Part shown: in pieces, positions 2,960 to 47,910 of the stretch
Layout: each line of letters starts with the position of its first letter
Position numbering within the stretch: position 1 is the stretch's first letter
Assembly: GCA_964650185.1 (NCBI GenBank)
Contig: CAZYRN010000006.1
Span: forward strand, 168-64,167
Reading direction: 5' to 3'
Source of the DNA: an uncultured Pseudomonadales bacterium
Lineage (GTDB): Bacteria > Patescibacteriota > Microgenomatia > UBA1400 > PJMF01
DNA: 64,000 bases
Notes under the pieces: model-generated
What the model was told of the DNA's origin: nothing
Seen by the model: the letters and a program-made list of their open reading frames with translations, nothing else
Databases searched by the model: none
Program-made: the position numbers and the translations under genes

Positions 2960-3027
2960 GTCTGCTCTACATTGTAATACAGATTGCTTTGCTAGCTGAG
3001 AACAAGATTTAGCTTTACAATAGCGCT

Positions 3028-4077: not shown

Positions 4078-4168
4078 TTTAAGCTCGAAGCTTTATTTAA
4101 GGCAAAATTTCTCCTAACAAGTCTTTTATTGTTAATAGCAAGCAATTTTTAGTATAATACCGGCCCTT

Positions 4169-28264: not shown

Positions 28265-28777
28265 ATGTTTAATTTTGTAATGTCCAAACTTCAGCTTCCT
28301 ATTCTAATGTCTTTTCAAAGGCACTCGCCTGAGCTAGTTACATCAAAGCTTTATGACGAACTTACGTTTTACAAGCAATTTATAAAGGACCTGAAAGCTA
28401 GCAAACAGGAAGTGATCGTGGAAAGCCAGTTTATCAGCTCGACTCGAATGTATTCTTTGGCACCTTTGTTTCGTAACCTAGTGTCTAGAAAAGTTAAGTG
28501 TTATGTGATTACCCGAGATCCGGATGATCACGACATCACCATGAAGCAACAAGCCGAGAAAGAGATCCGCAAGTTTCAGACGATTGGTGTTCAGGTGATC
28601 TTGACTAACGAATACAGTCACCGGAAGCTGGCTATCATTGACCGCAAGGTCTTATGGGAAGGCAGCCTAAATATTTTGTCTCAGACTTGCAGTCAAGAAA
28701 TCATGCGCCGGATAGAAAGCAAAGAACAAGCACAAAAATGCTTTGATTTTGTGAGATTTGGAAAGTTTATTTACTAA
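28265..28777 (+). CDS. Small PLD-family (HKD) nuclease-like protein
   Basis: SHRKLAIIDRKVLWEGSLNILSQ is a single HxK(x)4D(x)6GSxN HKD motif, as in Nuc/BfiI-type nucleases. AGGAGG RBS. First gene of the AT-rich island. Confidence 0.55.
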   Translation: MFNFVMSKLQLPILMSFQRHSPELVTSKLYDELTFYKQFIKDLKASKQEVIVESQFISSTRMYSLAPLFRNLVSRKVKCYVITRDPDDHDITMKQQAEKEIRKFQTIGVQVILTNEYSHRKLAIIDRKVLWEGSLNILSQTCSQEIMRRIESKEQAQKCFDFVRFGKFIY

Positions 28778-29531: not shown

Positions 29532-30986
29532 ATGAAAAAAGCAATAGCTTACCTTCGGGTATCAACAGAAGAACAAGTTGATAATTTTTCTTTAGAAACG
29601 CAAGAAGAGATTTGCCGAAAAGAAGCTGAAAAACGCGATCTTAATTTAGTGAAGGTTTTTAGAGAAGAAGGTAAGTCTGCTAAAGACATCTCCGGCAGAC
29701 CAACCCTGCTTCAATTACTTGAATACTGTAGAAAGAATAAAACTATGATAGATGCCGTTATTGTCTACCGACTTGATAGGTTATCAAGACAAACTGCGGA
29801 TTACTTAGCAATACGAAAGAAACTGTCTGATTACAACATTACTTTATATTCTGCTACTGAACCTACCGGGGATAGTCCAACAGAAAAACTGGTGGAGACG
29901 ATCCTCGCCGGATTTGCTCAACTGGATAATGATATCCGGGCAGAACGAGCAAGAAATGGAATGAAAGCACGATTTCTAGCAGGCTACACCAACCAAAGAC
30001 CGCCATTAGGATATCTGATGGTAGATAAGGTAGTCGTAAAAGACCCAGATGCTTGGGATTTGGTGAAAGCTTCCTGGTATTTAATGGCAACCGGAACTAA
30101 AAGCCTCCGGGATATAGCAGACTACATGAATGGGTTGGGGTTGAGGTATAACGTGCGATCGAAAAACTACAAGATAAGGCCTCAAGCAGCCAACAGGATT
30201 TTCAGGCACAAATTTTATGCTGGCATACTAGCGTCAAAGACCTACGAGCTTGAAGTCAAAGGCAAACATCCTCCAATGATAACAATGGCTCAGTTTAATT
30301 TGGTCCAGGATATTTTGGATGGAAGAAGGACTAAACAACTACCGAAGATAAAAAGAATCAGAGACAACCCAGACTTTCCGTTAAGAAGGATCGTTAAATG
30401 CGGAAAGTGTGGTACTGGCTTAACCGGATCGTGGAGCACTGGAAGACGATCAAAATTCGCCTATTATCGCTGTGGCAAACCATGCAATCATAAATCTATC
30501 CGCAGACAAGATGTTCATGATGAGTTTATAAAAGCTTTAGGAGGTATAAAACCAAAACCTCAAACTGCTGAACTATTCGAGTTTCTAATGACACAAAGCT
30601 TTGAGAAAAGAAGACAAAAATTGCTAGAAAGAAAAAGAACAATAGATTTAGAAATTGAAAAAGCTAAGTCAGATAAGAAAAAGATTATCAAAAAACATTT
30701 AGAGGGGGTTTATTCGGATGAAATATATGAGGAGCAAATGGAAATAGTAGAGTTGAAGTTGCAAAAATTAGCAACACTCAATAATAATGAGTTATTAAGA
30801 GTCTATAAGCAGACAAAATTTAGCAAAATGTTAAACAGAAAATTACATTTACTTGACGAACTACTTACTAAACTAAGTTCAAGTCAGTTGAGAGCTTTAA
30901 TAAATTTAGTGTTCGATGGGAATTTAAATTGGAGTAGCAGAAATTTACTTGAATTTAAACCTAGAGGGATCTGGCAGCTAAATTAA
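29532..30986 (+). CDS. Large serine recombinase (resolvase/invertase N-domain, recombinase domain, zinc ribbon and coiled coil)
   Basis: AIAYLRVSTEEQ catalytic Ser motif. VYRLDRLSR. Recombinase domain. KCGKCGTGL...YYRCGKPC zinc ribbon. Coiled-coil C-terminus. Confidence 0.85.
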   Translation: MKKAIAYLRVSTEEQVDNFSLETQEEICRKEAEKRDLNLVKVFREEGKSAKDISGRPTLLQLLEYCRKNKTMIDAVIVYRLDRLSRQTADYLAIRKKLSDYNITLYSATEPTGDSPTEKLVETILAGFAQLDNDIRAERARNGMKARFLAGYTNQRPPLGYLMVDKVVVKDPDAWDLVKASWYLMATGTKSLRDIADYMNGLGLRYNVRSKNYKIRPQAANRIFRHKFYAGILASKTYELEVKGKHPPMITMAQFNLVQDILDGRRTKQLPKIKRIRDNPDFPLRRIVKCGKCGTGLTGSWSTGRRSKFAYYRCGKPCNHKSIRRQDVHDEFIKALGGIKPKPQTAELFEFLMTQSFEKRRQKLLERKRTIDLEIEKAKSDKKKIIKKHLEGVYSDEIYEEQMEIVELKLQKLATLNNNELLRVYKQTKFSKMLNRKLHLLDELLTKLSSSQLRALINLVFDGNLNWSSRNLLEFKPRGIWQLN

Positions 30987-31845
30987 AGTTTTGGATGACT
31001 GCGAGTATATCCTTTTTATTTTTTATAGTGGTAATTTCTCTTCCTGTTGTGCTCGAGAAGCTAGTAAGAGTCTTCAAGTTAATATGACACAAAGCAATAA
31101 CTTTCCATTTTGCAAAGCTTAATAATTTCTTATCCTTTATGAATATTTCCAATCGAATAAACAAAGCTTCATACGCCATTACAAGTGCAAATAGATAAAT
31201 AAATGGCAAGTACATTACTGTCAATACCGAAGGAATAACTAAAGTTAGTAAGTTATGTGCGGATAATGCTTCCGTAAGACTTCCTATAGCAGTAAGGATG
31301 GAGTAAGACAAAATAAATATCCCATATCCAGCAATTAGGACTTTAAGTGGTCTTCTAACAATCATATATTCATCTCTACTATCCGCTAAAGCACTCATCG
31401 CTATCACTAGAAACAGGAATGGCATGAGAACAAACTCAATAGCAAATGAAAATGAATATAGACCAGTTAAAAACTCTACTAATATGGTAATAGCAAATGT
31501 CTCCAATAAAATTTTTTTAAATAATGAAGGGTCTTGGCTTGCTTTGTTTGTGTTGAGAAATAGAACCGTAGCGGTTCCAAAAAACCAAAAAATAGTATCT
31601 TTAAGTAAAAATATATCCCAAATACCTGCCTGCCTTAGTACTAATACCGATAATACTGAGTAAGCAAGCATGGCTAAAAAAGGAATAAGTATTTTCGGGT
31701 TAAAAAATGTATTTGCTACATTAAATAAACTTGTGCGTGTTTTACTGTTAATTAGAATGAAGATTATTAATATGACAACCCATGCTGCTAATGCTTTCTC
31801 TCGACCATTCATGGCATTTATTATTTCTAGTGCTGCCCTTTTCAT
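30961..31845 (-). CDS. Polytopic (about 8 TM) membrane protein of unknown family, translationally coupled to the upstream 793-aa gene
   Basis: 294 aa, highly hydrophobic. Its start overlaps the stop of 31842..34223 by 4 nt (ATGA). Confidence 0.5.
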   Translation of the reverse strand: MKRAALEIINAMNGREKALAAWVVILIIFILINSKTRTSLFNVANTFFNPKILIPFLAMLAYSVLSVLVLRQAGIWDIFLLKDTIFWFFGTATVLFLNTNKASQDPSLFKKILLETFAITILVEFLTGLYSFSFAIEFVLMPFLFLVIAMSALADSRDEYMIVRRPLKVLIAGYGIFILSYSILTAIGSLTEALSAHNLLTLVIPSVLTVMYLPFIYLFALVMAYEALFIRLEIFIKDKKLLSFAKWKVIALCHINLKTLTSFSSTTGREITTIKNKKDILAVIQNFNLAARSL

Positions 31846-34223
31846 TTCTTTGGATTAGCCCCTTTAGTTTTCTTCCTGTTCTGATTTCTTTTTCGTTCGA
31901 ACTCTTCATGCCAAACTGTATCCCACCTTTTTATACCCAAATATTTTTGCTGAGTGGCCATAGCCAGTCCGTAAATTCCATAACTGTCTCTGTAAATTTT
32001 TTGTTCTTTTTCATTCCAACAATATGGAGGTGAGTGTAATGAAAATAACTCGTTTGCTGTTAAAATTAGAACTGGATTTACTGGTCTTTCTAACTTCCAA
32101 TGCTTATTTCCTACTCTCGTAATTTTCTTAATTTCTTGTATTTCAAACGGGGTGAGTTCTTCTCTTAAAGTTGAGAATACTAAAACTGCTCCGGGGAAGC
32201 TTTTTGCAATAGACTTCATACGGTTAAAATCTTTCTTTTTGAATTCGTTAAATGTTTTTGCCTCACCAAAAGCAACCCCATCTGCTATCTCTCCGAAGAC
32301 GGACTCGCGCCATAAGAAAGCAAAATCTGCTTCTAAATTCTTGCCAGTGCTTGTTTTAGTTGCATTAAACGAGTACACAGGAGTGGTTTGTATTGAGCTC
32401 ATCCTTCTTTCAGAAAAAAACTCAACAGAAAGCACTACACTGATAGCTCCTTCAGCGTAATTTGGGACACTAACTGGGCCGACAGTTTTATAAGACCAAT
32501 TACTTTCACTGAGGCTATCAATAGCATGAAAATCTTGCAAGCATTTAGTGCAATTTAATAAATTATGTAGATCTTCTAGATCGTACCAAGAATTTCTTTG
32601 GCAGTTAGGGCATTTAGCACTTACACCAAGAGAAAATAAGTTTAGCTCGATAAATTTTTCTAGTCTTTTTTCATCCCCAAATATTTCCTTCATTCGGCTC
32701 TTAATAAATGCTACAGTTTTGTCTCTACCTTCACCGTCTATGCTTACGGCCATTTCACCAATCAACTCAATAAGTTCTTTATTGGCTAACCCGTATGCCC
32801 AACCTTCTATCTGCTTATTCAATTCTTTAGCTAACTTTCCCGAGCTAGATAAACGAAAGTTCCAGCCATTATCCTTTAACCAAGCAGAAAAAACATTCTC
32901 TGCAAGGGGTAATTCCCAAGATATAGCTCTAGAAGAGTCAACTAGTCTTACCAATCCATTTTTTCCAATTCGCCAATCCTTAAATGTTCCAATACTACTA
33001 AGTGTTCTTTCTAAGCTTTCACCGTAAACTTTAGGAAATACTTCAGCGTATTTTTCAAGATCACCATATATGTTATAACTCACTTCATTAGATACAATGG
33101 GACTTCCAGTATATGAGGCTTTAATATGCTCTGGCATGCTTGCTGGTAAAAGTATCCTGTCATTTGCCTGTGTGAGATCAACTTCTTTTTCCGATTCGAA
33201 ATACACATCATGTGGGTCGACATGATCCTTACCCCGTGCCCACTCATCCCATATCCGAGGATATCCCTGGTGCAACAAGATAGGATTTGTTCCATCATCG
33301 TCTTTTTCCAAGTCTAGAGATGTGACAAAATCTCTTGCATCTTCCATTTTTTGACTAGTTGCGGGAATAATGTTTGCTCTGTACTTTATTGCAGGATTGT
33401 ATCTATTTGTCCAAAAACTTGCTTTAATAAAATCTTCAACTATCCCTTTAAAAAAATCATTATTAGTCATTGTTGTAGGAGCAGGTAGGACCGATCTTCC
33501 TGTAGCTCTAAGATTCCAATAATCCACTACATCTAGGAAGTCAGAAGGATCCAAATAAAATAATATATTTTCATTAGAAAACCCTCCTCTACTAATAGTG
33601 TCTAATTCATGCTGCATAATTCTTCTGGGAAAAAGTGTTCTGGGTTTTAGTATTTTCTTTAATGCTCTTGCCTTGGGCGTGGAAATATCTAAAGCTTCTT
33701 TATAGCCTGATTTCATTAAATCGTTGTAATACTTATCGGGCAATTTACCGAACCAACTTGCCCAAAATTCAGGATTTCTTGCTGGTATTTTTGGGAAGAC
33801 TACATTTATAGGATCTTTTTGGACAAATCTAAAGTATTCATGGTAGATCCAACTTAAGATATCGATAAACCCTATACCAAAAGAAAATGTATTTGGATTT
33901 TCTTTTGTAGGTAGAATCTTGTTTGACTTAACAACTCTTAATCCTAAATTCTTTATATAATCGGGCGGATCAAAGTCACAAACCAATATATCCGGGTCAT
34001 AAGCTTGAATATAACCAAGATTTATATCTCTCGCTGTTTTTCTAAAAGCATCTTTTCTCCATCTTTTAGTCTTTATTTGGTAAAGTGGAATTATAGGATT
34101 ATAAGGACCACCCCAAAGCACCGAATTTAGTTCAATAGCTTTTAGTAGTGCTTTCTTATCATTTGGTTTTATAAGAAAGGCAAACTTCAAAGGTCTACCT
34201 TTTACTTTTATATTGCCGATCAT
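31842..34223 (-). CDS. Large protein of unknown family with CxxC...CxxC zinc ribbon and C-terminal PD-(D/E)xK-like nuclease signature
   Basis: 793 aa. CPNCQRNSWYDLEDLHNLLNCTKC. ADFAFLW...IADGVAFGEAKTF parallels the hsdR nuclease core in this same window (VDYVLWG...LGLVEAKR). No P-loop. Confidence 0.55.
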   Translation of the reverse strand: MIGNIKVKGRPLKFAFLIKPNDKKALLKAIELNSVLWGGPYNPIIPLYQIKTKRWRKDAFRKTARDINLGYIQAYDPDILVCDFDPPDYIKNLGLRVVKSNKILPTKENPNTFSFGIGFIDILSWIYHEYFRFVQKDPINVVFPKIPARNPEFWASWFGKLPDKYYNDLMKSGYKEALDISTPKARALKKILKPRTLFPRRIMQHELDTISRGGFSNENILFYLDPSDFLDVVDYWNLRATGRSVLPAPTTMTNNDFFKGIVEDFIKASFWTNRYNPAIKYRANIIPATSQKMEDARDFVTSLDLEKDDDGTNPILLHQGYPRIWDEWARGKDHVDPHDVYFESEKEVDLTQANDRILLPASMPEHIKASYTGSPIVSNEVSYNIYGDLEKYAEVFPKVYGESLERTLSSIGTFKDWRIGKNGLVRLVDSSRAISWELPLAENVFSAWLKDNGWNFRLSSSGKLAKELNKQIEGWAYGLANKELIELIGEMAVSIDGEGRDKTVAFIKSRMKEIFGDEKRLEKFIELNLFSLGVSAKCPNCQRNSWYDLEDLHNLLNCTKCLQDFHAIDSLSESNWSYKTVGPVSVPNYAEGAISVVLSVEFFSERRMSSIQTTPVYSFNATKTSTGKNLEADFAFLWRESVFGEIADGVAFGEAKTFNEFKKKDFNRMKSIAKSFPGAVLVFSTLREELTPFEIQEIKKITRVGNKHWKLERPVNPVLILTANELFSLHSPPYCWNEKEQKIYRDSYGIYGLAMATQQKYLGIKRWDTVWHEEFERKRNQNRKKTKGANPKK

Positions 34224-34430
34224 GTTTTTGCTATATAAAAAAAGCCCAATTAAGGGCAGGCTTTCAAAAATTTATATTTTCCTTTCCCTGTCATTATACT
34301 TTATTTTCCCTTACTCCTTAAATCTTTCCCTGAGGTCTTTAACCTGACTTTAACCGCTTCAGATGTTAAAATTATGACTATAGAGATAGTAGTGTACTGC
34401 GTTGTATGAATTTCAATTAAAGGAAATAAT

Positions 34431-35903
34431 ATGCTTACTGGAAAACTTAGATCAGAAATAGATAAAGTATGGGATGCCTTTTGGACAGGTGGGATTTCTA
34501 ATCCTCTGACGGTTATCGAGCAAATCACCTACCTTCTATTTATCAAACGGCTGGACGAAATTCACACGCTCCGCGAAAACAAAGCAAATGCTCAAAAAAC
34601 TGAAATTGAAAAACCTATATTTTCCGATGATCAACAACATTTAAGATGGTCTCATTTTAAAGATCTTGAGCCTAAAGAAATGTACAAAGTGGTATCTGAA
34701 GAAGTATTCCCATTCATAAAGGACCTTAACGGCAAAACTGAAGATGCCTACACACAATACATGAAGGATGCGACCTTCATGATTCCTACTCCAAATCTGC
34801 TGGATAAAGTAGTTAACATGCTTAACGAAATTAAGATGCATGATAGGGATACAAAAGGTGATGTTTATGAATACCTACTTTCAAAAATTGCCACAGCAGG
34901 TAGAAACGGTCAGTTTAGAACCCCGCGACACATTATCAGAATGATGGTTGAACTGGTTGAGCCAAAGCAAACTGATAAAATTGCTGATCCAGCGTGTGGA
35001 ACTGGGGGCTTTTTGGTATCTACCAGCGAGTATGTCCGAGAAAACTATCCGGAAATGTTTACGGATGAGAAACTTCGCGATCATTTTAACAACACGATGT
35101 TTTATGGCAACGATTTTGATCGAACAATGATCCGCATTGCCGTAATGAATCTTGTGCTTCATGGTATTGAAAATCCTAATGTAACCGACAAAGATGCGCT
35201 ATCCCAAAGCCAAGCTTTGGAAAGAAATAAGTTTGAGGTAATTCTAGCTAATCCCCCGTTTAAAGGATCTCTGGACTACGAAGTTGTGGCTAATGATCTT
35301 TTGCAAACAGTGCGTACGAAGAAAACTGAACTGTTATTTATTGCACTTTTTATCCATCAATTAAAGACCGGAGGTAGAGCAGCAGTTATTGTGCCGGATG
35401 GGGTTTTGTTTGGTAGCTCACAAGCACATAAAGCCATTCGCAAGCTGCTGATAGATGAACATCAACTTCAAGGAGTTATCTCTATGCCATCCGGTGTATT
35501 CAAACCCTATGCCGGAGTCTCTACTGCTGTATTACTGTTTACCAAAACTAACTCCGGAGGAACAGACAAGGTTTGGTTTTATGATATGAAGGCGGATGGA
35601 TATTCACTAGACGACAAACGCCAACCTCTCGATCTTGAAAAACACGAAGACAATAATATTCCCGATATAATCAAGCGTTATCACAATCTCAAGGAGGAAG
35701 AAGATAGAGAAAGAACGGATCAATCATTCTTGGTACCAGTCAAAGAAATCCGCGACAATGATTACGATCTATCAGTCAACCGATATAAAGAAATTGAGTA
35801 TGAGGAAGTGGAATATGAGGAGCCGGAAAAAATCATTGAAGATTTAGAAAAATTGGAAGTGGAAATTCAGGAAGGGCTAAAAAAGCTAAAGTCAAAAATA
35901 TGA
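34431..35903 (+). CDS. hsdM: Type I restriction-modification system methyltransferase subunit
   Basis: HsdM N-domain. Motif I DPACGTGGFL. Motif IV NPPFKG. ISMPSGVFKPYAGVSTAVLLF. Confidence 0.9.
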   Translation: MLTGKLRSEIDKVWDAFWTGGISNPLTVIEQITYLLFIKRLDEIHTLRENKANAQKTEIEKPIFSDDQQHLRWSHFKDLEPKEMYKVVSEEVFPFIKDLNGKTEDAYTQYMKDATFMIPTPNLLDKVVNMLNEIKMHDRDTKGDVYEYLLSKIATAGRNGQFRTPRHIIRMMVELVEPKQTDKIADPACGTGGFLVSTSEYVRENYPEMFTDEKLRDHFNNTMFYGNDFDRTMIRIAVMNLVLHGIENPNVTDKDALSQSQALERNKFEVILANPPFKGSLDYEVVANDLLQTVRTKKTELLFIALFIHQLKTGGRAAVIVPDGVLFGSSQAHKAIRKLLIDEHQLQGVISMPSGVFKPYAGVSTAVLLFTKTNSGGTDKVWFYDMKADGYSLDDKRQPLDLEKHEDNNIPDIIKRYHNLKEEEDRERTDQSFLVPVKEIRDNDYDLSVNRYKEIEYEEVEYEEPEKIIEDLEKLEVEIQEGLKKLKSKI

Positions 35904-37000
35904 AATACATAGATTTGTTCGAAATTTGTCGACCCAAGCAGTGGAAGACAATATCTCAAAAAAATTTAAATACTGAAGGGTACCCTGTTTATGGGGCTAA
36001 TGGAATTATTGGCTATTATAAAGAATACAACCATGTGGAGCCCACAGTCATGATTACTTGTAGAGGGGCAACATGTGGAACAGTAAATATTAGCGATCCA
36101 AAGTCTTACATCACTGGTAATGCAATGTGTTTAGATGATTTATCTAGTGAGTTTGATAAAAAGTATCTTTTTTATTTCCTAACTAAAAGAGGTTTTGATG
36201 ATGTAATTTCTGGATCTGCACAACCACAAATCACCAGAACTGGTTTGAAAAAAGTCAAAGTGCCGTTTGTCCCTTTCAAAATCCAGCAGCAGATTGTGGA
36301 GATTTTGGACGAAGCCGATGCTGTGCGTAAAAAAAGGGAAAAAACTATTGAGAAATTGTCAGAACTAAAAAATGCAATTTACTACGAAATGTTTGGTGAT
36401 CCAATTAAAAACTCAAAAAATATTAAGACCAGGTTAATCAGGGATATAGCTACCGTTGTAAGAGGTAGCTCGCCTCGTCCTAAAGGAGACCCTGCATATT
36501 ACAATGGCCCAGTTCCTCGACTAATGGTAGAAGATTTAACAAGAGACGGGTTATATGTTCATGCTGAGGTCGACTCGTTGACTAAAGAAGGCGCAAAAAA
36601 GAGTAGGCCAATGAAAAAAAATGAAGTTGTAATAGTAGTAAGTGGGAATGTGGGAATAACAGCAATACTACAAGAAGACTGCTGCATACACGACGGTTTT
36701 GTGGGTTTACGTGACTTAAACCATAATGTTCTACCTGAATACCTTGCCATCACACTAAATAATATGACGGAAACTCACGAAAAGAGAAAAGCCGGGGCAA
36801 TCTTTAAAAACCTTACAACTACACAAATAAAAAATATGGAAGTACCTCTACCTTCACTTGAGGCGCAAGGGAAATTTACTGAACGTCTGAATATTGTTAA
36901 AGATACAAGTGACAACATCATAAATTCACAAGAGAGAATGTCGGACTTATTTAATCAGTTACTCAAAAAGTCGTTTAAAGGCGAGTTTAAGTTTAGCTAA
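35900..37000 (+). CDS. hsdS: Type I R-M specificity subunit
   Basis: Two TRD-like halves separated and followed by conserved helical repeats (VPFVPFKIQQQIVEILD and VPLPSLEAQGKF). ATGA overlap with hsdM. Confidence 0.8.
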   Translation: MKYIDLFEICRPKQWKTISQKNLNTEGYPVYGANGIIGYYKEYNHVEPTVMITCRGATCGTVNISDPKSYITGNAMCLDDLSSEFDKKYLFYFLTKRGFDDVISGSAQPQITRTGLKKVKVPFVPFKIQQQIVEILDEADAVRKKREKTIEKLSELKNAIYYEMFGDPIKNSKNIKTRLIRDIATVVRGSSPRPKGDPAYYNGPVPRLMVEDLTRDGLYVHAEVDSLTKEGAKKSRPMKKNEVVIVVSGNVGITAILQEDCCIHDGFVGLRDLNHNVLPEYLAITLNNMTETHEKRKAGAIFKNLTTTQIKNMEVPLPSLEAQGKFTERLNIVKDTSDNIINSQERMSDLFNQLLKKSFKGEFKFS

Positions 37001-37008
37001 ATAACATT

Positions 37009-39267
37009 ATGAACCAAAAGACAAAAAATAAAATCTGGCAGTTATTAGATTCGAAAAGATCGGAATATCCTACTGAACATTTCTTGGATGTTAATTTTGT
37101 AAAAGAAATGATTGATACAAACAATTTGAATAATGAAGAGATTGATGCACTAGAAAGTATTATCCTTGGAATTCAGCGAAATAGAATTGGTGAGTATGTT
37201 ACGCCAAATAACTTGGTTAGATTTCTTACAAGAATTGTTGAGCTTAATAATTCTGATGTGGTTATTGATCCAGTCTGCGGGACCGGAAATTTCTTAAAGG
37301 AGCTTTACAAGGAAAATTCCAAAGCGAGTTACTTTGGTATAGATATAAACTCGAAGATTATCGATTGGGCTAAAGAGTTTGCTAAACACAGAGAGCAGGA
37401 GATAAACTTTCTTAACCAAAATTCTCTAGAAGATTTCCCTACTACAGTGCCAAAAGCTAATTACATCTTCGCAAACTTGCCGTTTGGAGCAAAAGTCAAT
37501 AATAAACATCTGATAGAAAACTATGAGATACAGTCAAAAGAATTAGATATTTTACTGATACAAAAAATAATTAAATCCCTTAAGCAAGATGGGATAGCAT
37601 TTATCATTGCAACAGAAGGGCTTTTGTTCCGAAAATCTGCTGAAAGATTACGACAATTCATTTCTGAAAAAGCCTCTCTTGATGCAATCATATCTCTTCC
37701 CTCTGGGACGTTTGCACCATATACAAACATTAAAACGTCTGTACTAATTATCAGTAATAGAAAAAAGAATAAAACAGCCCTCTATGAACTAGAAAATATC
37801 CGTGAAGATAGTAAGGTTATAGAAGATATAAGAGCTCACCTTTCAGGCGAACAAACATCATATGGAGAGGTAATAGAGAACTTTAGCCAAAGAGAGAGTT
37901 GGTCAGTAAGTAGATACTATGGCGAAGTTAATAGGCAACGTCTATTGGATGCAATACCTCACAAATATGAACTAAAGAAGATTAAAGACATTTGTGAAAT
38001 AAAAACTCTAAGCCCGCAAGATATTGAGCGAGAAGAAATTGACTTAATAATCTCAAGCACATATAACCCTGGGAAACTACTTTCTTTAGAAGATATTCAA
38101 GATAAAAGCAGTAAAGCAAGGTACTTTACTCTAAAGATAACGGATCCTAAAGTTTCAAAAGATTACCTAAAGTTATTATTAAACAGTAGATATGCAAGCT
38201 TAGAAGAAGCATCTACCGGAATGACTATAAAGTCACTGAACAAAAAGGCGCTGGAAGATTTTGAAATCCCCATTGTTGATGAAGAAGTGCAGAATCATCT
38301 TGAAATCAAGATTAATAACATCGAATCTTTTAAAGACAAAGTAACGAGTTTAATAACAGAAATTAGGAAGGTCGAAGAAGGAGACATATTCAACTTCGAT
38401 TATGACCCCGAAAGTAGTTTGAATTCTATACTGGATAGCTCAATCCAATATCACGAATCTCTACCAAAACCTATTGCCTTAAGTTATTTCTCATATAGAA
38501 ATACACAGAACATTGATAAGAAATTTGACAGCATAGTTACTAGTTATTCAACAATTGTTAAGACACTGGGACTCATTTCTCTTATCGGCCTCTCAACTAT
38601 AGATGACGAGAGCTTGCCTAATAAAATAAGGGCCGAAATTAATCCATCACGGCCAATATCAGATGGGGTTTGGGGGAAACTAGTTCAACTAGCAGTAAAA
38701 AGATGTAAAGACATGAACTGCTTTCTATCTGATGAACTTAAATATATTGACTATAAAGAAATAGTTTCTTTGACTAACGAACTAACAGCAAATCGCAATA
38801 AAAAAGCTCATAACACCAAATCGTACTCAAAAATTCAAAAAGAAGCATTCATTGCAAGATTTCAAAACGATCTTGAGAGATTATTAGATCTGTTTTCCTT
38901 TCTATCGAAAGCACCGCTAGTCTACTTTGAAAAAACCGAAAAATTCCCCCCTCAAAAGATAGTACATACAGTCAGATATCTTGTCGGTGATGATATGCAC
39001 GATAAGGAAGACAACATTGAACTCCGTGAGGATTTTTACCAAACACTTTACTTGCTGAAAAATATACCGAACAAGAGTATCTCAATGTACCCACTTATGA
39101 TTTATGAGGATTCCGTAGAAATTGAATCGAAAGATATTTTTTTGTTCTCTGGATTAGATAAACGGGATAATCCTTACTATCTGAGCCTAAATAAGGGAGA
39201 GAAAATAGTAAGAGAAGAATACAGAGACGACGTCCATAGAGTATTTTATTACATATCAGAAAAATGA
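37009..39267 (+). CDS. Second gamma-class N6-adenine MTase domain fused to a TRD-like region and an about 350-aa C-terminal domain of unknown function
   Basis: Motif I VIDPVCGTGNFL. Motif IV ANLPFGAK. ISLPSGTFAPYTNIKTSVLII (HsdM-like). Then FEIPIVDEEVQNHLEIKINN, an HsdS-like conserved repeat. Unknown tail. No nuclease or helicase motifs. Confidence 0.55.
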   Translation: MNQKTKNKIWQLLDSKRSEYPTEHFLDVNFVKEMIDTNNLNNEEIDALESIILGIQRNRIGEYVTPNNLVRFLTRIVELNNSDVVIDPVCGTGNFLKELYKENSKASYFGIDINSKIIDWAKEFAKHREQEINFLNQNSLEDFPTTVPKANYIFANLPFGAKVNNKHLIENYEIQSKELDILLIQKIIKSLKQDGIAFIIATEGLLFRKSAERLRQFISEKASLDAIISLPSGTFAPYTNIKTSVLIISNRKKNKTALYELENIREDSKVIEDIRAHLSGEQTSYGEVIENFSQRESWSVSRYYGEVNRQRLLDAIPHKYELKKIKDICEIKTLSPQDIEREEIDLIISSTYNPGKLLSLEDIQDKSSKARYFTLKITDPKVSKDYLKLLLNSRYASLEEASTGMTIKSLNKKALEDFEIPIVDEEVQNHLEIKINNIESFKDKVTSLITEIRKVEEGDIFNFDYDPESSLNSILDSSIQYHESLPKPIALSYFSYRNTQNIDKKFDSIVTSYSTIVKTLGLISLIGLSTIDDESLPNKIRAEINPSRPISDGVWGKLVQLAVKRCKDMNCFLSDELKYIDYKEIVSLTNELTANRNKKAHNTKSYSKIQKEAFIARFQNDLERLLDLFSFLSKAPLVYFEKTEKFPPQKIVHTVRYLVGDDMHDKEDNIELREDFYQTLYLLKNIPNKSISMYPLMIYEDSVEIESKDIFLFSGLDKRDNPYYLSLNKGEKIVREEYRDDVHRVFYYISEK

Positions 39268-42200
39268 AAACAAACTTTACATTTCTACAAAAAGACTGGC
39301 CGCAGATTTATGAAGAAGCTTTACAAGCCGAACAGCATGGGTTCACAGCCCCGCGTACTTCTGTATTTTATGCCCGCCGGACAATAGAGCTAGTCATAAA
39401 CTGGCTTTATTTGCATGATCCGGATTTGCAACAGCCTTATGAAACCCATCTGGCAGCACTCATGCATGAACCGAGCTTTAAAAAGCTGCTGCCATATAAC
39501 CTCTTTCATTTAATAAACTACATTCGCAAGATCGGCAATCAAGCCGTTCATAGCAGAAAGCCAATCAGTGAAAAAGAATCACTTGCTGCATTAAGGAATC
39601 TTTATAACTTCTGCGAATGGATGGCAAAGCAGTATAGCCAGGAACAGCCGGAATTCCCTCAATATAGTGAATCAATAATTCCTCGCGATGGTGAGCAAGA
39701 TAAAAATGCTGAAGAATTAAGACAATTACAAGAGCAGCTTGATTCTAAAAACCAAGACTTTGAACAGCAGAAACTACTTTTAGTCGAATATGAAGAAGAG
39801 CTTAAAGAACTACGGGCTCAGGTCAAGATAACCAAAGAGAAGAATATAAAGACTGTTAGCCAGAAAGATTATTCAGAAGCAGAAACTCGCGAATTATTTA
39901 TCGACTTGTTGCTTAAAGAAGCTGGTTGGGATCCACAGGGAGAAAACGTAGCTGAGTACGAAGTGGAAGGTATGCCAAATAACAAAGGTATTGGATATGT
40001 AGATTATGTTTTATGGGGAGACGATGGGCTACCTTTGGGTTTGGTAGAAGCGAAGCGAACAACTCATGATGCCCAAAAAGGACAACGACAAGCTGAACTT
40101 TACGCTGATGCACTAGAAAGAAAATACGGACAAAGACCAGTAATATTCTATACCAATGGATACGATCATTGGATCTGGGAAGATGACATGTATCCTCCCC
40201 GACCGATCCAGGGTTTCTATACCAAGGATCAACTGCAAACAATGATTAATCGTCGTAATGCTCGAAAAAGTCTACTTGATGCTCCGGTGAACGATGAAAT
40301 TGCGGGAAGATACTATCAGAAACTGGCTATTCAACATGTCTTAGAGCAGTTTGAACAGAAGGATCGACGTTCATTGATAGTAATGGCAACAGGAACCGGC
40401 AAGACCAGAGTTTCCATTGCGTTAGTTGAACTTCTGATGAAGCAAGGTTGGATAAAAAATGTTTTATTCCTGGCAGATAGAAATGCTCTGTTAACTCAAG
40501 CAAAAGCAGCCTTTAATGATCTCTATCCGGAAGCAACAACAGTAGATATCACAAAAGAAAAAGAGGAAACAACATCAAGAATAGTTTTCTCCACCTACCC
40601 TACTATGATGAATATGATCGATGAAGCCAAGAAAGACGGAGTAAAAAGGTTTGGTGTCGGACGATTTGATTTGATTATTATTGATGAAGCTCATAGAAGT
40701 GTGTACCAAAAATATGGTGCTATCTTTGACTATTTTGATTCTTTGCTTATTGGTTTGACTGCTACACCAAAAGCAGAAGTGGACCACAACACCTATGAAC
40801 TATTTGGTTTGGAAGATCACAATCCTACATATTCTTATGAGTTAGATCAGGCAGTTGAGGATGGGTTTTTAGTTCCGCCTAGGCAAATTGAAGTGCCAAC
40901 CAAATTTTTATCGGAAGGTTTAACATATGACGAATTAAGTGATGAAGAAAAAGAAATGTATGAGATGACCTTTGAAGATGATGAAGGTCAACTACCTCTA
41001 ATGATTGCTCCCTCGCATTTTAATGATTGGGTGTTTAATACCGATACTATTGACAGTGTTTTAGCATATTTAATGGAAAACGGTATTAAAGTAGAAGGCG
41101 GAGATAGATTGGGTAAAACAATAATCTTTGCCAAAAATCATAAACACGCCATGTTTATTCAGGAGCGGTTTAATAAAAACTACCCATATTATGGTGGACG
41201 AGTTTTGCGGGTAATCGATAACTATGCGGATTATTCCCATACCTTAATCGATGAATTTAAGCAAAACAAGCCTGACAGTCCTTATATTGCAGTATCAGTA
41301 GATATGTTGGATACCGGAATTGATATTCCGGAAATTGTTAATTTAGTATTTTTTAAAATTACCAGGTCAAAAGCTAAATTCTGGCAAATGATAGGTCGTG
41401 GAACCCGTTTATGTCCCAAGTTGTTTGGCCCTGAAAGTCCTGAAGATGATAAGAAAGAATTCTTAATTTTTGATTTTTGTGGGAATTTCGAGTTCTTTAA
41501 AGTCAACCCTGAAGGAATTAAAGGCACAGCTCAGAAATCATTATCACAACTCATCTTTGAAAAACGTGTAGAGCTTGCTCATGAGTTACAAAGCGGCACT
41601 TATACAGATAACCAGGCTTTACAAGAACTGCGAACTAGTTTGCTAAACATCCTACATGAAGATGTATCACAGATGGATCCGCTAAGTTTTAACCTACGCA
41701 ATCACAAACGATACATTGATGAGTTTAGCAACAGAGATCGCTGGAATAACTTGAGCAAACAGGATGTGATCGACATTAATGAGCACATTGCTCCGTTTTC
41801 AAACTTAGTTGTTGATGAGGATGAGTTTGCCAGAAGATTTGATTCACTTATGCTGACGCTGCAAGTTGAGATGCTCAAAGACAACAGGAAACCAACTAAC
41901 AGTAAGCGACGGGTCATGACACTTGCAGAACTTCTTTTTGAGAAAGCTAATATTCCTGCTGTAGCTGAAAAGATCTCAACGATAAATAAGGTGCGAGAAG
42001 ACGCATTTTGGGAAAATCCATCAGTAGAAGAACTTGAAGAGGTACGAAGGGATCTTCGTGACTTAATCAAGCTGCTTGATCCACCAGACAGGAAAGCTGT
42101 TTACACTAATTTTACTGATACTGTTTATGACCCGGTGAGTACTGGAGGAAGTGCTATTGGAGACCGTCCGAATAGAGAAAACTATTTGAAAAGAGTACAG

Positions 42201-42659
42201 TCAATTATTCGAGAAAATGAATTTGTAACAGCGATTCAAAAAATTAGAAACAATGAAAAATTGGATGAAATGGATATTAAAGAGATAGAAGCTTTATTGA
42301 TAAACAGTTCATATGACATTGATAAAACAAAAATCGAGGAAATTCTTTCAGGACAGACATTAGGTGAATTTATTCGTGGACTGGTGGGGCTTGATAAAGA
42401 TGCTGCCAAAGCAGCCTTTGCAGAATTGATGCAAAAAAGAAATTTGAATGCAGCGCAGATGCAGTTTTTGGATAAAGTCATAGATCACATCGTAGCAACG
42501 GGCATTGTTAAGCCGGGCGATTTGTATGATCAACCATTCACCTTTTTAGATGACAGGGGTATTGATGGCGTATTTGAAGAAGCTGATAGAGATTATATAT
42601 TTGGAGTCTTAACTGGCATTAGGGCAAACGCACAGTTTGGGTTTGGAGGAATGGCATGA
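39264..42659 (+). CDS. hsdR: Type I R-M restriction subunit (helicase/endonuclease)
   Basis: PD-(D/E)xK core GYVDYVLWGDDGLPLGLVEAKR. Walker A MATGTGKT. DEAH-box IIIDEAHRS. Helicase C domain. ATGA overlaps on both sides. Confidence 0.9.
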   Translation: MKTNFTFLQKDWPQIYEEALQAEQHGFTAPRTSVFYARRTIELVINWLYLHDPDLQQPYETHLAALMHEPSFKKLLPYNLFHLINYIRKIGNQAVHSRKPISEKESLAALRNLYNFCEWMAKQYSQEQPEFPQYSESIIPRDGEQDKNAEELRQLQEQLDSKNQDFEQQKLLLVEYEEELKELRAQVKITKEKNIKTVSQKDYSEAETRELFIDLLLKEAGWDPQGENVAEYEVEGMPNNKGIGYVDYVLWGDDGLPLGLVEAKRTTHDAQKGQRQAELYADALERKYGQRPVIFYTNGYDHWIWEDDMYPPRPIQGFYTKDQLQTMINRRNARKSLLDAPVNDEIAGRYYQKLAIQHVLEQFEQKDRRSLIVMATGTGKTRVSIALVELLMKQGWIKNVLFLADRNALLTQAKAAFNDLYPEATTVDITKEKEETTSRIVFSTYPTMMNMIDEAKKDGVKRFGVGRFDLIIIDEAHRSVYQKYGAIFDYFDSLLIGLTATPKAEVDHNTYELFGLEDHNPTYSYELDQAVEDGFLVPPRQIEVPTKFLSEGLTYDELSDEEKEMYEMTFEDDEGQLPLMIAPSHFNDWVFNTDTIDSVLAYLMENGIKVEGGDRLGKTIIFAKNHKHAMFIQERFNKNYPYYGGRVLRVIDNYADYSHTLIDEFKQNKPDSPYIAVSVDMLDTGIDIPEIVNLVFFKITRSKAKFWQMIGRGTRLCPKLFGPESPEDDKKEFLIFDFCGNFEFFKVNPEGIKGTAQKSLSQLIFEKRVELAHELQSGTYTDNQALQELRTSLLNILHEDVSQMDPLSFNLRNHKRYIDEFSNRDRWNNLSKQDVIDINEHIAPFSNLVVDEDEFARRFDSLMLTLQVEMLKDNRKPTNSKRRVMTLAELLFEKANIPAVAEKISTINKVREDAFWENPSVEELEEVRRDLRDLIKLLDPPDRKAVYTNFTDTVYDPVSTGGSAIGDRPNRENYLKRVQSIIRENEFVTAIQKIRNNEKLDEMDIKEIEALLINSSYDIDKTKIEEILSGQTLGEFIRGLVGLDKDAAKAAFAELMQKRNLNAAQMQFLDKVIDHIVATGIVKPGDLYDQPFTFLDDRGIDGVFEEADRDYIFGVLTGIRANAQFGFGGMA

Positions 42660-43534
42660 GTATAAACGACAAAATTAAATATGAAGTAGCCCTCTCTTTT
42701 GCAGGTGAGCAACGCGACTACGTTAGAAAAGTTGCAGAAGTTTTAAAGGACAATAACGTCGATTGTTATTTTGATGAATTTGATGAAATAGAGTTATGGG
42801 GCAAGTATATGCCTGATCGCTTTCAAGAAGTTATGGGAGATAAGTCGAAGTACGCAGTAATATTTATTTCAGAAGAGTATAAAAATAAGTTTTATACAAA
42901 TTTAGAAAGAATGACATTGTTGACCTCTGATTTATTTAGAGAAGGTCGGTTACTTCCAGCAAAATTTGATGATACAAAGTTGCCTGGATTACCTGATGGT
43001 ATTAATTACGTGACTTTAAAAGATTTATCACCTGAAGAGTTTGCTAAAAAAATTATGCGGAAGATTGGTACCAAGACCAGTAAAGACGTAGTAGAAAATA
43101 AAGTGGCTGATTTTTATATACCAAAAACAAGAAAGTCTGTTAATCCAATTACACAACGGAAGGAATGGATTAAATATATTACTCAAGAGCTTAAAAGGCG
43201 TGCTGTAAAAGTCGATGGACTAGAGATGGACGATGATGATGAAGGATCACATCATAGAATATTGTTTCACTACAATGGAAAGACACTTGTCTCAATAAGA
43301 ATTATAAAAAACAGTATAGGGAATGATGGATTAGCTTTTGGGTTTGATTATGGCTATTCTTCTACTGGTGGCATGAACGCTTGGGGAGATTTTGATTGGA
43401 GTTTGGAGAAGGATGAGGAAATATTGAAAGTGCATGGAATGAGTTCCTTGGGAGATGGAGAATATACTAAAAAAGATTTAGTAGATGCACTGTGGAAAAA
43501 AATTACAAAGCACGTTGATGAGGAAAATACTTGA
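42656..43534 (+). CDS. TIR-domain protein (N-terminal TIR-like domain plus about 150-aa unknown C-terminal domain)
   Basis: KYEVALSFAGEQRDYVRKVAEVLKDNNVDCYFDEFDEIELWG...YAVIFISEEYKNKFYTNLE matches the bacterial TIR signature. Start overlaps the hsdR stop (ATGA). Confidence 0.55.
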   Translation: MSINDKIKYEVALSFAGEQRDYVRKVAEVLKDNNVDCYFDEFDEIELWGKYMPDRFQEVMGDKSKYAVIFISEEYKNKFYTNLERMTLLTSDLFREGRLLPAKFDDTKLPGLPDGINYVTLKDLSPEEFAKKIMRKIGTKTSKDVVENKVADFYIPKTRKSVNPITQRKEWIKYITQELKRRAVKVDGLEMDDDDEGSHHRILFHYNGKTLVSIRIIKNSIGNDGLAFGFDYGYSSTGGMNAWGDFDWSLEKDEEILKVHGMSSLGDGEYTKKDLVDALWKKITKHVDEENT

Positions 43535-44070
43535 TGAAAAGACAAATATTAGAAAAGCTTGATAACTCCCTGAGAAACTTTAAATCTGAAGCTGATGTGG
43601 TTTATATTTTGACGAGAATTGGAAAAATTCTAGAAATTGATGAAAAGAAACAAGATTATCCCGTTATTAACTTTTACCGTAATTGGTCCGTTCACAAACA
43701 AATTGACGATGTTGGCAATGTCAGACATTATTTAGAGGATTTCATTCATAACAAAGAGAATCGTGACAGCCTACTTTTTCATAAACCACTTTTTGAAGAA
43801 CTCAATTTATTTTCTAAAAATTACTCAGTGTCAAATTTAAGCGGGGAACAAGCAGCTGATTTTGCCTATCTATTAGGAAAAGTGATTTCAGATACTCCAG
43901 TTTTTATAAAATTTGATAGAACACATTACGAAATTTCAATTAGCGAACCAGTCAGTCGTGATCAAAGTGGAACTTACAAAATAAGCGTAAAAGTGAACGT
44001 TGAGCCTGTAAAAATGAAAATTACAACACCTCCCGTAGAGGCTAAGTATGAAGAAAAAGTGTCGAATTAA
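43534..44070 (+). CDS. Hypothetical 178-aa protein coupled to the TIR gene
   Basis: ATG overlaps the TIR stop by 1 nt (TGATG). No recognisable motif and no TM. Confidence 0.4.
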   Translation: MKRQILEKLDNSLRNFKSEADVVYILTRIGKILEIDEKKQDYPVINFYRNWSVHKQIDDVGNVRHYLEDFIHNKENRDSLLFHKPLFEELNLFSKNYSVSNLSGEQAADFAYLLGKVISDTPVFIKFDRTHYEISISEPVSRDQSGTYKISVKVNVEPVKMKITTPPVEAKYEEKVSN

Positions 44071-46325: not shown

Positions 46326-46739
46326 TTATAGGTTATTATTTATCAATTCATCAATTTTTTCACTGCTGGCTAGGTCTGTGGTTCGTAGTTCTATAAAATT
46401 GAAATTATTCTCAGTCAAAGCTTTTCTAACAAACTCATCCCGCGCTTTTCTTGATTTCCATGAGTGGGTTGAGTCGTTAAGTTCAATTATCAGTCTAGGG
46501 TTCATATCTTTATCGAAAATCACAAAATCTACAAAAAGTTTATTAAGCCAATCAAACTTTCCGGCTAAATCGTTTGTGTCATCTTTTACCTCAAGTATGG
46601 TTGATAAATGAAGCTGAGGGAAAACAAAGTAATCTTTCAATGCTTCATTGTTCTCTAGAATACTAAATAGCTTCAGTTCATTCCCAGTCAGAAAACGCTG
46701 TTTTCTTTTGAATGGATTTAGCTTTCCTTGTAAGAACAT
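46326..46739 (-). CDS. DUF2726-domain protein (restriction-endonuclease-like fold)
   Basis: VDFVIFDKDMNPRLIIELNDSTH...KARDEFVRKAL matches the DUF2726 core (D...E-L-D/N...K). Confidence 0.5.
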   Translation of the reverse strand: MFLQGKLNPFKRKQRFLTGNELKLFSILENNEALKDYFVFPQLHLSTILEVKDDTNDLAGKFDWLNKLFVDFVIFDKDMNPRLIIELNDSTHSWKSRKARDEFVRKALTENNFNFIELRTTDLASSEKIDELINNNL

Positions 46740-47060: not shown

Positions 47061-47910
47061 GCAAGTTAGTCATCTTCACCCTGAGTTAACTAAAAAGTTT
47101 GTAGCAGAGATGCTTGGCATTTCTAGACAGTGGCTGTACAAAATAGATTTTCTTCAGAACAGTAAAGATGAACTGTTAAAAGAGAAAATATTGTTTGTGT
47201 GGAGTTCTCACCCAAGTAAAGCCAGTTATGGCTATCGCCGACTTGCCATTGAGCTTGGAGTTGGTAAAAAACGAATTCGCCGCTGTATGAAGAAATATGG
47301 CTTAAAGCCATACAAAAGAAAATCCAGGTGGAGAAAAAGACGAGATGAAAGGAGAAAACCAGCACCATTTTCTAACCAGATTAAAAACCAGTTTCCGATT
47401 GTGCCAAACCACACTTGGGTGGGAGATTTTACATATTTACCATTCAAATGAAAATTTCTCTATTTAGCCACCTTCCTAGATTTATTTACCAGAGAGGTTG
47501 TGGGCTGGCATATTTACACAACTCACACAAAAAATCTGGTGATGCAGGCTTTTCTTGATGGACTGGTTAACCGTAATTTTCAGAAGCCAACCTACATCCA
47601 CTCTGACCAAGGAGTTGAATATACCTCCCAAGATTACACCAAACTAATCCAGGATTTTGGTATTCAAATATCTATGAGCTCCAAAGCTTCTCCTTGGGAA
47701 AATGGTTACCAAGAAAGTTTTTATAACAACTTTAAAACTGACCTTGGCTTAGAGTTTGACCGCTTCCAAGATGAAGGACATTTACTAGAAGCCATTCACC
47801 ACACACTTCACGACTACAACCACACCAGAATTCATTCCATATTAAAAATGCCTCCTTCCAGATTCCACGCCGAGTATTTACACTCCGTGTCTACGAAAAG
47901 GGGTGCTTGA
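47032..47910 (+). pseudogene. IS3-family transposase OrfB (integrase core), inactivated by nonsense codon; +1 relative to orfA
   Basis: WVGDFTYLPFK-[TGA]-KFLYLATFLDLFTREVVGW then HSDQGVEYTS...SSKASPWENG...DYNHTRIHS is the rve DDE core with a premature stop. The frame is reached from the orfA frame at the A9 tract, +1 rather than the usual -1. Confidence 0.6.

Follow-up and report, generated by a model that had tools for sequence, protein, structure and literature searches.

Predicted zinc-ribbon PD-(D/E)xK nucleases of a large unnamed family and their occasional coupling to a membrane gene that appears to be separately mobile

In the 64,000-nucleotide stretch of DNA analysed here (the window), a gene for a large putative nuclease overlaps the gene of a membrane protein. 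The initial annotation interpreted the two as a candidate two-gene defence module of the kind represented by Kiwa or Zorya. Translational coupling of two genes within a defence island does not by itself make them a conserved system, and the question raised by this locus is whether the two genes belong together. Both predicted reading frames, of 793 and 294 codons, are present in the window; their products are called BIG and MEM, respectively, in the following. The genes are located within a low-GC defence island, the GC content being 0.35-0.38 across 28-48 kb versus 0.41-0.46 in the flanks. The setting of restriction-modification (R-M) and type IV genes was borne out by the annotation of HsdM, HsdS, MTase-S, HsdR and GmrSD around BIG. 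A large serine recombinase gene, which is convergent with MEM and overlaps it by 26 bp, marks a mobile-element context common to the window and close relatives. The direct repeats found when att-type boundaries of the 28-48 kb island were sought were short and at chance level only. The coordinates of the features are listed in Table 1.

Table 1. Features of the BIG-MEM locus and its surroundings (window coordinates)
Feature	Position	Strand	Remarks
PLD nuclease	28265-28777		
Large serine recombinase	29532..30986	+	Resolvase, Recombinase, Zn_ribbon_recom domains
MEM ORF	30961..31845	-	294 aa, polytopic membrane protein, small unannotated family
ATGA stop/start overlap BIG/MEM	31842..31845	-	AAGAAATGAAAAGG; translational coupling
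BIG ORF	31842..34223	-	793 aa, unannotated family
BIG PD-(D/E)xK nuclease domain, aa ~575-790	31854..32501	-	predicted catalytic E631-x-D633, E654-x-K656
EADFAFLW...FGEAK segment, BIG aa 631-656	32256-32333		
BIG C4 zinc ribbon, aa 530-566	32526..32636	-	C538, C541, C558, C561
CPNCQ...CTKC motif, BIG aa 538-561	32526-32636		
BIG N-terminal region, aa 1-530	32634..34223	-	two Rossmann-like alpha/beta domains, beta-rich domain, helical domain
Hairpin + U-run	34239..34265	-	AAAGCCTGCCCTTAATTGGGCTTTTTTT; ~17 nt upstream of BIG ATG; conserved non-coding block
Type I R-M operon: HsdM, HsdS, MTase-S fusion, HsdR	34431..42659	+	divergent from BIG
TIR protein	42656-43534		
GmrSD	44067-46295		
DUF2726	46326-46739		

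The cysteine motif noted in BIG and the C-terminal segment on which its nuclease assignment had been based are both present. The four zinc-ribbon cysteines C538, C541, C558 and C561 are kept in 198, 198, 198 and 197 of 198 family members, and the catalytic-motif positions D633, E654, K656 and E631 are conserved in 198, 197, 195 and 196, respectively. In the AF2 model (pLDDT 86, pTM 0.80) the zinc ribbon consists of short beta-hairpins. The C-terminal part has the restriction-endonuclease-like alpha/beta core fold and the conserved D...(D/E)-x-K motif, two features of the PD-(D/E)xK superfamily, in agreement with the PD-(D/E)xK-like C-terminus proposed for the 793-residue protein. The N-terminal region has its own near-invariant polar residues. 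When these 530 residues were searched alone for folds, no specific match was obtained, and for this reason a sensor role is something that we can only infer for them.

Comparison of BIG and MEM with the Pfam, NCBIfam, PADLOC and PHROGs profiles assigned no family, housekeeping or other, in agreement with the earlier remark that the large protein matched nothing nameable. Two lines, for JetD in PADLOC (E=0.0075 over 25 residues) and for one PHROG (E=0.008), were regarded as spurious. BIG did not match the profiles of single-gene defence nucleases (Shedu DUF4263, HamA DUF1837, NERD, Mrr and others), and PDB sequence searches with the BIG profile, the MEM profile and the alternative partners yielded no meaningful match. 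The literature searches yielded no description of either family.

The BIG family is large. It comprises 3283 representatives (891 at E<=1e-30), which match nearly all end to end over 780-830 residues, includes more than 600 full-length homologs and falls into about 900 clusters at 50% identity. In 185,579 species genomes at least 126 matches were confirmed, the count being a lower bound because it was limited by the search pattern; the distribution is patchy, in Patescibacteria, Acidobacteriota, Proteobacteria, Nitrospirota, Poribacteria and one Methanosarcinales MAG. One match, annotated as 'hypothetical protein', was found among 72,556 plasmids, and no relatives were detected in the IMG/VR viral contigs and a phage collection.

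The genes next to BIG vary. Among 146 immediate neighbours there was no conserved partner gene, no conserved cognate methyltransferase and no CRISPR or cyclase association; the neighbours include Methylase_S, ResIII, Eco57I, AAA_15/21, SLFN_AlbA_2, GmrSD_N, NucS_C and Tsp45I. In six loci BIG is embedded in or adjoins a type I R-M operon, and in five of these (L049, L057, L063, L066 and L070; the sixth is L010) it lies inside the operon, with gaps of 5 nt or overlaps of 4 nt. An R-M or defence probe matched within 8 kb of BIG in at least 20 of 79 genome loci, or in 26 of 79 if recombinases and integrases are counted, whereas in about two thirds of the loci the probes, which are insensitive, gave no defence or mobile gene. 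The enrichment is semi-quantitative only. Close relatives of BIG are found beside R-M genes, DpnI, SMODS/SLATT, a type IV HNH enzyme and serine recombinases; the latter occur near BIG in L094 and L095, and also in 8 of the 79 genome loci. Taken together, BIG belongs to predicted DNA nucleases with a zinc ribbon, which form a large family without a name and are located near restriction systems in many phyla.

These distributions bear on the possibility that BIG is not an immune protein at all, being instead a nuclease used in DNA repair, in recombination or by the integrative elements that carry it during their life cycle, with the defence genes as coincidental cargo. Many loci have no defence neighbours and some lie between housekeeping genes, as in L004 (Desulfonatronum); close relatives are carried on serine-recombinase or integrase elements, and the lack of viral relatives (see above) is also compatible with such a function. 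However, few matches, scattered over unrelated phyla, are not what a housekeeping gene would show; the recombinase linkage is inconsistent, and BIG has repeatedly been inserted into type I R-M operons, where its frame overlaps or nearly abuts those of its neighbours. We consider a non-immune function very improbable.

The same neighbourhoods would be compatible with a type IV, modification-dependent restriction endonuclease, whose N-terminus reads modified bases and whose FokI/MspJI-like domain cuts nearby. BIG is a stand-alone nuclease lacking a conserved cognate methyltransferase, MspJI and AspBHI are among its fold matches, it can coexist with type I R-M genes inside their operons, and it adjoins type IV genes (GmrSD in the window, an HNH mREase in L095). 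In contrast to the MspJI/AspBHI class, no SRA-like or modified-base reader domain was found N-terminally in BIG, and this reading appears quite improbable to us.

For MEM the label '8-TM' was about right, because a simple hydropathy scan gives 7-8 transmembrane (TM) segments depending on the threshold; the protein also has a soluble tail of about 70 residues. The family consists of 23-35 homolog clusters, none of them with Pfam domains, and the residues R15, E16, W76, K82, T84, E137, P214 and Y225 are invariant. The partners of MEM are mostly other than BIG. It was found 0-2 bp behind type IIG R-M enzymes in six loci, behind N6_Mtase-S (L113), N6_N4_Mtase (L103) or unknown proteins in others, and in front of RT_UG17 in L117 and L119, and nearly always, behind DNA-targeting enzymes, it comes last and is tightly coupled. 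In L008 it follows a 436-residue protein that proved unrelated to BIG and MEM. The L008 MEM (58% identity) is as close to the MEM of the window as is that of L006 (60%) despite the unrelated partner, which shows partner switching. MEM is best regarded as a separately mobile, restriction-linked membrane gene.

How firmly BIG and MEM are associated was assessed in two sets of loci. MEM lies downstream of BIG in 4 of the 10 close-clade loci (58% identity or more) and in none of the 79 reference-genome loci. Conserved pairing in other genomes, which had been set beforehand as a test of the module, is thus largely absent, and because BIG usually occurs without MEM beside it, the two do not constitute a fixed two-gene system. 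What stood of the proposed module is the tight coupling and a partial co-inheritance in a small clade. The ATGA overlap described for the window is present and also joins BIG to a MEM homolog in L124, the gaps being 5 nt in L098 and 11 nt in L006. The four pair-bearing loci are independent, with divergence to 44-62% for MEM and 61-81% for BIG, and the trees of the two proteins agree in part (between L124 and L098, BIG is 81% and MEM 62% identical). Taking into account that the pair recurs in four diverged loci with tight coupling and partly congruent trees, a clade-specific partnership, and with it a local functional link, is possible. A 256-residue membrane protein encoded after BIG in L001 is unrelated to MEM and BIG.

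The hairpin with a U-run noted on the minus strand just upstream of the BIG start is real. Terminator-like sites as such are not commoner in the region than expected by chance (4 found, 2.6 expected). Nevertheless, this block recurs with 23 of 24 nucleotides at the corresponding position in L006, L007 and L097, where the flanks are unalignable, and thus upstream of a BIG homolog of only 61% protein identity; the chance expectation within the window is 0.01. Only the hairpin stands out in the 216-nt leader, which as a whole folds no better than shuffled sequences (z=0.29); a structured leader or riboswitch was rejected.

In the clade of the window, BIG and MEM might nevertheless act as a real two-component system, in which MEM anchors or activates the nuclease at the membrane, at the site of phage DNA entry, or, once BIG has triggered it, damages the membrane as a second effector. 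Besides the junctions and the recurrence described above, this would agree with the presence of the 24-nt hairpin block in two pair-bearing loci and with the habitual position of MEM as the last gene behind DNA-targeting enzymes. The BIG stop is ATGA-coupled to three unrelated genes, the junction in L094 and L125 holding unrelated soluble genes, a pattern that would fit swappable effectors; the sister genes would then be interchangeable partner modules. On the other side, MEM is missing from all 79 distant and from 6 of the 10 close BIG loci, including L010, the nearest neighbour of L124 in the BIG tree; BIG has an intact effector domain of its own, the type IIG partners of MEM are self-sufficient, and the partner switch in L008 also argues against a dedicated pair. 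A two-component system is in our judgement fairly unlikely.

With no conserved partner, end-to-end matches of uniform length and no MEM in any of the 79 reference loci, BIG is best read as a stand-alone protein. We propose, with about even confidence, that BIG is a self-contained sensor-nuclease defence candidate and MEM a separate portable gene captured behind it in a few relatives. BIG would be a single-polypeptide nuclease serving as an accessory defence gene, either restriction-like or abortive. Its N-terminal ~530 residues may recognize a cue, either a small ligand or some property of foreign DNA, and may control or target the C-terminal module. The latter consists of the C4 zinc ribbon and, after it, a PD-(D/E)xK domain that resembles those of FokI and Can2 and has its E-x-D...E-x-K site intact; it is predicted to cleave DNA and probably dimerises, as FokI-type domains do. 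MEM would insert as the last, coupled gene behind type IIG R-M enzymes, methyltransferases and BIG; in the window and a few relatives it would be co-translated with BIG, which in general would not need it.

An unlikely variant gives MEM a larger part, namely that of a portable membrane module that couples type IIG enzymes, BIG and the UG17 reverse transcriptase to the envelope, the ATGA of BIG being an exchange point for co-translated partners (in the clade of the window MEM, a HEPN-like 285-residue protein and a 255-residue protein). MEM might then sense or localise to the entry of phage DNA, or provide a back-up membrane-disrupting effector.

On the proposed reading, BIG adds a large new family, spread over many phyla and lacking annotation, to the candidate immune genes. 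The family has kept an intact, invariant nuclease site, and the 530-residue N-terminus, which has no recognisable fold, could hold a new way of recognizing foreign DNA or a signal of infection; as a tool, a nuclease that is programmable or senses modification would be useful. MEM represents a small unannotated membrane family, encoded by preference immediately downstream of restriction enzymes. Should MEM cooperate with these, classical restriction would be linked to the membrane, as recently glimpsed in Zorya and Kiwa, and if the reading of MEM as a portable module is true, a new 'membrane-coupled restriction' logic would be built on a new nuclease family.

BIG and MEM are neither Kiwa nor Zorya, to which they had been likened. 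The resemblance to Kiwa (the membrane protein KwaA and KwaB with DUF4868) and to Zorya (the ZorAB membrane motor with ZorC/D/E) is one of gene grammar only: neither protein matched the PADLOC Kwa or Zor models (Zor at E<=1), the pairing is mostly absent (see above), and unlike Zorya, the locus has one membrane gene, which lacks MotA/MotB domains and was not MotAB-like in the searches done. From the cleavage domains of the type IIS restriction enzymes FokI and BspD6I, BIG differs by having no detectable sequence similarity, by the C4 zinc ribbon ahead of the nuclease and by the lack of a conserved cognate methyltransferase, and its N-terminal region is unlike the FokI recognition domain. The CARF nucleases Can2, Card1 and Cdn1 are ancillary effectors of type III CRISPR whose CARF sensor binds cyclic oligoadenylate. 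They bring up a further reading, to us highly improbable, that BIG is a CARF/SAVED-type ligand-gated nuclease, in which a nucleotide second messenger produced by another protein would bind a Rossmann-like domain at the N-terminus and so turn on the PD-(D/E)xK domain. BIG is twice as long, with extra beta-rich, helical and zinc-ribbon modules, superimposes poorly as a whole (TM at most 0.35), gave no CARF match with its N-terminus alone and has no CRISPR or cyclase neighbours.

Type I R-M operons also contain accessory genes linked to restriction, such as PrrC and the 'Rlo' genes; PrrC and RloC are ATPase-anticodon nucleases. BIG, by contrast, is a PD-(D/E)xK protein without an NTPase domain, and most of its loci are outside R-M operons. 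It is similar to them in that in several genomes it lies between or beside hsdS, hsdM and hsdR with overlapping or near-abutting frames, and in the window it is divergent from hsdM. MEM can be compared with SLATT, which usually holds the position next to the UG17 reverse transcriptase (PMC9226505). MEM has 7-8 predicted TM segments as opposed to 2-3, neither MEM nor its relatives match Pfam SLATT_1-6, and its main partners are R-M enzymes, not nucleotide-signalling systems. What MEM shares with SLATT is the UG17 neighbour in the two loci mentioned above and the character of a portable membrane protein that attaches to many different defence genes.

Both open reading frames called in the initial annotation, their overlap and the two motifs of the larger product, CPNCQ…CTKC and ADFAFLW…GEAK, were present in the window. 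The 793-aa protein (BIG) is followed by a 294-aa polytopic membrane protein (MEM), for which eight transmembrane segments had been claimed and a hydropathy scan gave 7-8. The hairpin with U-run described 5' of BIG was also found, about 17 nt before the start. The genes lie in an island of low GC content (0.35-0.38 at 28-48 kb vs 0.41-0.46 outside), together with a PLD nuclease, an HTH gene, a large serine recombinase, a type I R-M operon (HsdM, HsdS, MTase-S fusion, HsdR), a TIR protein, GmrSD, DUF2726 and an integrase fragment.

Direct repeats bounding the approximately 20-kb low-GC stretch, which carries the serine recombinase and the rve integrase fragment, were looked for and none was found. 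The PLD-like nuclease matched the C-terminal domains of MkoC and DrmC in PADLOC and is solitary, other Mokosh or DISARM genes being absent. Between hsdS and hsdR there is a second N6_Mtase-Methylase_S fusion, whose C-terminal ~300 aa match no known family, and HsdR has a DUF4145 domain at its N-terminus. The genes of a TIR-domain protein (292 aa) and a family-less 179-aa protein are appended to the operon through start/stop overlaps, and may constitute a restriction-linked TIR module.

Table. Features of the window and of other loci carrying BIG or MEM homologs (L handles), in the coordinates of each locus
Locus	Feature	Position	Strand	Detail
Window	BIG ORF, 793 aa	31842-34223	minus	ORF calling
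Window	MEM ORF, 294 aa	30961-31845	minus	ORF calling
Window	ATGA overlap, BIG's TGA with MEM's ATG	31842-31845	minus	sequence
Window	CPNCQ…CTKC	BIG aa 538-561	minus	translation
Window	EADFAFLW…FGEAK	BIG aa 631-656	minus	translation
Window	Hairpin + U-run CCTGCCCTTAATTGGGCTTTTTTT	34239-34265	minus	
L006	Hairpin counterpart	1224-1245		
Window	Low-GC stretch	28000-48500		
Window	PLD-like nuclease, 170 aa	28265-28777	plus	left island edge
Window	N6_Mtase-Methylase_S fusion, 752 aa	37009-39267	plus	
Window	HsdR	39264-42659	plus	
Window	TIR and 179-aa genes	42656-44070	plus	
Window	hsdR end / TIR start	42659 / 42656	plus	
Window	TIR end / next start	43534 / 43531	plus	
Window	rve integrase fragment	47500-47910		
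L124	MEM 3' of BIG			ATGA overlap
L098	MEM 3' of BIG			5-nt gap
L006	MEM 3' of BIG			11-nt gap
L094	Unrelated soluble 285-aa protein 3' of BIG	2493-3350		ATGA overlap
L125	Unrelated soluble 255-aa protein 3' of BIG	7376-8143		ATGA overlap
L001	Another membrane protein, not MEM, 3' of BIG			156-nt gap
L095	MazG-like gene 3' of BIG			then HNH/type IV gene
L096	Integrase 3' of BIG			
L010	No gene following BIG			hsdR convergent
L126	BIG homolog	2379-4787		
L101	Type IIG partner of MEM	1082-3895		
L115	Type IIG partner of MEM	170-2986		
L120	Type IIG partner of MEM	2306-4894		
L117	MEM + RT_UG17	275-2684		MEM ~170 nt upstream of RT
L119	MEM + RT_UG17	2636-5045		MEM ~170 nt upstream of RT

BIG had no family match in Pfam, NCBIfam, PADLOC or PHROGs, and its family profile found nothing among PDB sequences. 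A word-indexed search yielded more than 600 homologs, all ~800 aa long and all unannotated; when 1.84 billion cluster representatives were searched exhaustively with an HMM, 3283 relatives passed E≤1e-3 and 891 passed E≤1e-30, almost all with end-to-end matches. With a confident AlphaFold2 model (34 homologs as input; pLDDT 86, pTM 0.80), the best Foldseek match was Cdn1 (E=1.7e-5, prob 1.0), followed by Card1, MspJI and AspBHI. Among 198 full-length members the site residues D633 (198), E654 (197), K656 (195) and E631 (196), and the four zinc-ribbon cysteines (198, 198, 198 and 197), are nearly invariant. The matching fold and the conservation of these residues support the guess that ADFAFLW…GEAK is a PD-(D/E)xK core, whose site is under strong purifying selection. 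By fold and motif, BIG is a member of the PD-(D/E)xK superfamily.

The model with most support makes BIG a self-contained sensor–nuclease with a putative role in defence, in which the N-terminal region would serve recognition or regulation and control the cleavage module, and the zinc ribbon with the FokI/Can2-like domain would cut DNA. MEM would be a separately mobile accessory, co-translated with BIG, and perhaps cooperating with it, in the window's lineage. The analysis itself established the fold, the invariant site, the uniform architecture, the genomic contexts and the pairing counts, and from these the roles in defence and sensing, the substrate and any joint action with MEM are inferred. 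BIG is a member of none of the profiled nuclease families (FokI-type, Can2/Card1, MspJI, Shedu, HamA, Mrr, NERD). We consider it improbable that BIG is a CARF-like ligand-gated nuclease, and improbable, if slightly less so, that it is a type IV enzyme, a reading with which the MspJI and AspBHI matches would be compatible.

In one-genome-per-species data BIG occurs in Patescibacteria, Acidobacteriota, several proteobacterial classes, Nitrospirota, Poribacteria, Planctomycetota, Chloroflexota and one Methanosarcinales MAG. The distribution is sparse, 126 matches being confirmed among 185,579 species, though the search patterns make this count a minimum. The nearest genome relative is in a Candidatus Roizmanbacteria MAG (63%). 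Searches of IMG/VR contigs and of the phage collection found no relative; of 72,556 plasmids, one carried BIG, labelled 'hypothetical protein'. The archaeal homolog (L011) is 42% identical; that of the plasmid, Photobacterium damselae pWMD-P3-2 (L126), is 27% identical and adjoins a DUF4238 gene. Both fit horizontal spread.

Genomic context associates BIG with defence semi-quantitatively. Its immediate neighbours include Methylase_S (5-6), ResIII, Eco57I, AAA_15/AAA_21, SLFN_AlbA_2, GmrSD_N, NucS_C, Fic and Tsp45I. It also lies inside type I R-M operons, separated from its neighbours by 5 nt or overlapping them by 4 nt, in the order hsdR…hsdS-BIG-hsdM in L070 and much alike in L066, L063, L049 and L057. 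With insensitive single-sequence probes, the raw count of loci that have an R-M or defence gene no more than 8 kb away was 20 of 79, rising to 26 of 79 once recombinases and integrases were counted. Among close relatives, BIG is near R-M/DpnI/PDDEXK_1/Trypsin_2 in L001, near HsdM/SMODS/SLATT in L096, and by serine-recombinase elements in L094 and L095; many loci, such as L004, look ordinary in their surroundings. The recombinases and the ordinary loci would also suit a non-immune function in mobile-element biology or DNA repair, which is improbable and against which the R-M operons speak.

The proposal that BIG and MEM form a conserved module mostly failed: none of the 79 reference-genome loci had a MEM homolog 3' of BIG, no family was common to BIG's 146 immediate neighbours, and MEM homologs amounted to only 23-35 clusters. 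What follows BIG varied (Table) in the close-clade sample (ten independent loci, with a BIG 58% or more identical to that of the window). In a neighbour-joining tree, MEM-bearing BIGs were interleaved with MEM-less ones; the sister of the window's BIG was L094, and the nearest neighbour of L124 was L010, both without MEM. Identities between L124 and L098 were 62% for MEM and 81% for BIG, those between the window and L006 60% and 61%, and are partly congruent; the MEM of L008, behind an unrelated 436-aa protein, is equally close to the window's (58%). These results are most simply read as a long-standing association within this small clade, marked by recurrent loss, replacement and exchange of partners. 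A two-gene system specific to the close clade would account for the congruence, and is possible, if unlikely.

The same ATGA overlap joins the BIG stop to three unrelated genes in different relatives, those of MEM and of the 285-aa and 255-aa proteins. The latter two had no match in Pfam, PADLOC or PDB; the 285-aa protein has a C-terminal RHGILH motif, a HEPN-like Rx4H. As for the hairpin, 23 nt of the 24-nt block are kept in L006, L007 and L097 amid unalignable intergenic DNA, and in L006 at the same position though its BIG is only 61% identical. The block was absent from all other fetched loci and viral contigs. It could act as an attenuator, be an inherited terminator or mark the edge of a cassette. 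In the window a tiny ORF, MTGKGKYKFLKACP, terminates inside the loop.

A metagenome scan gave 27 MEM loci. MEM lies 0-2 bp behind complete type IIG enzymes (HSDR_N + Eco57I/N6_Mtase + TaqI_C domains) in L101, L102, L115 and L120, and equally close to 435-459-aa proteins in L105 and L106, probably 5'-truncated type IIG copies cut by contig ends. Type IIG R-M was the commonest direct upstream partner in JGI metagenome loci. Other partners are an N6_Mtase-Methylase_S fusion (L113), an N6_N4 methyltransferase (L103) and several unknown proteins, and further relatives adjoin GmrSD, an OLD-family ATPase, integrases and HTH genes. In L117 and L119 an RT_UG17 reverse transcriptase, of a defence-associated type, is immediately downstream (PADLOC E=1e-130). 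UG17 RTs were reported to be paired with SLATT membrane effectors, called highly mobile and adaptable (PMC9226505). MEM resembles SLATT in genomic behaviour, including its place beside UG17 RT, but by every test run it is not a SLATT protein. It represents a small, new membrane family linked to R-M, and the way it favours restriction enzymes is a lead open to testing.

New candidate defence families are frequent finds. The BIG-MEM pair is neither Kiwa nor Zorya, to which it had been likened. Distinguished by a structurally unassignable N-terminal half, complete lack of annotation and the size of its family, BIG represents a new family of a kind already known, that of stand-alone nucleases in defence islands.
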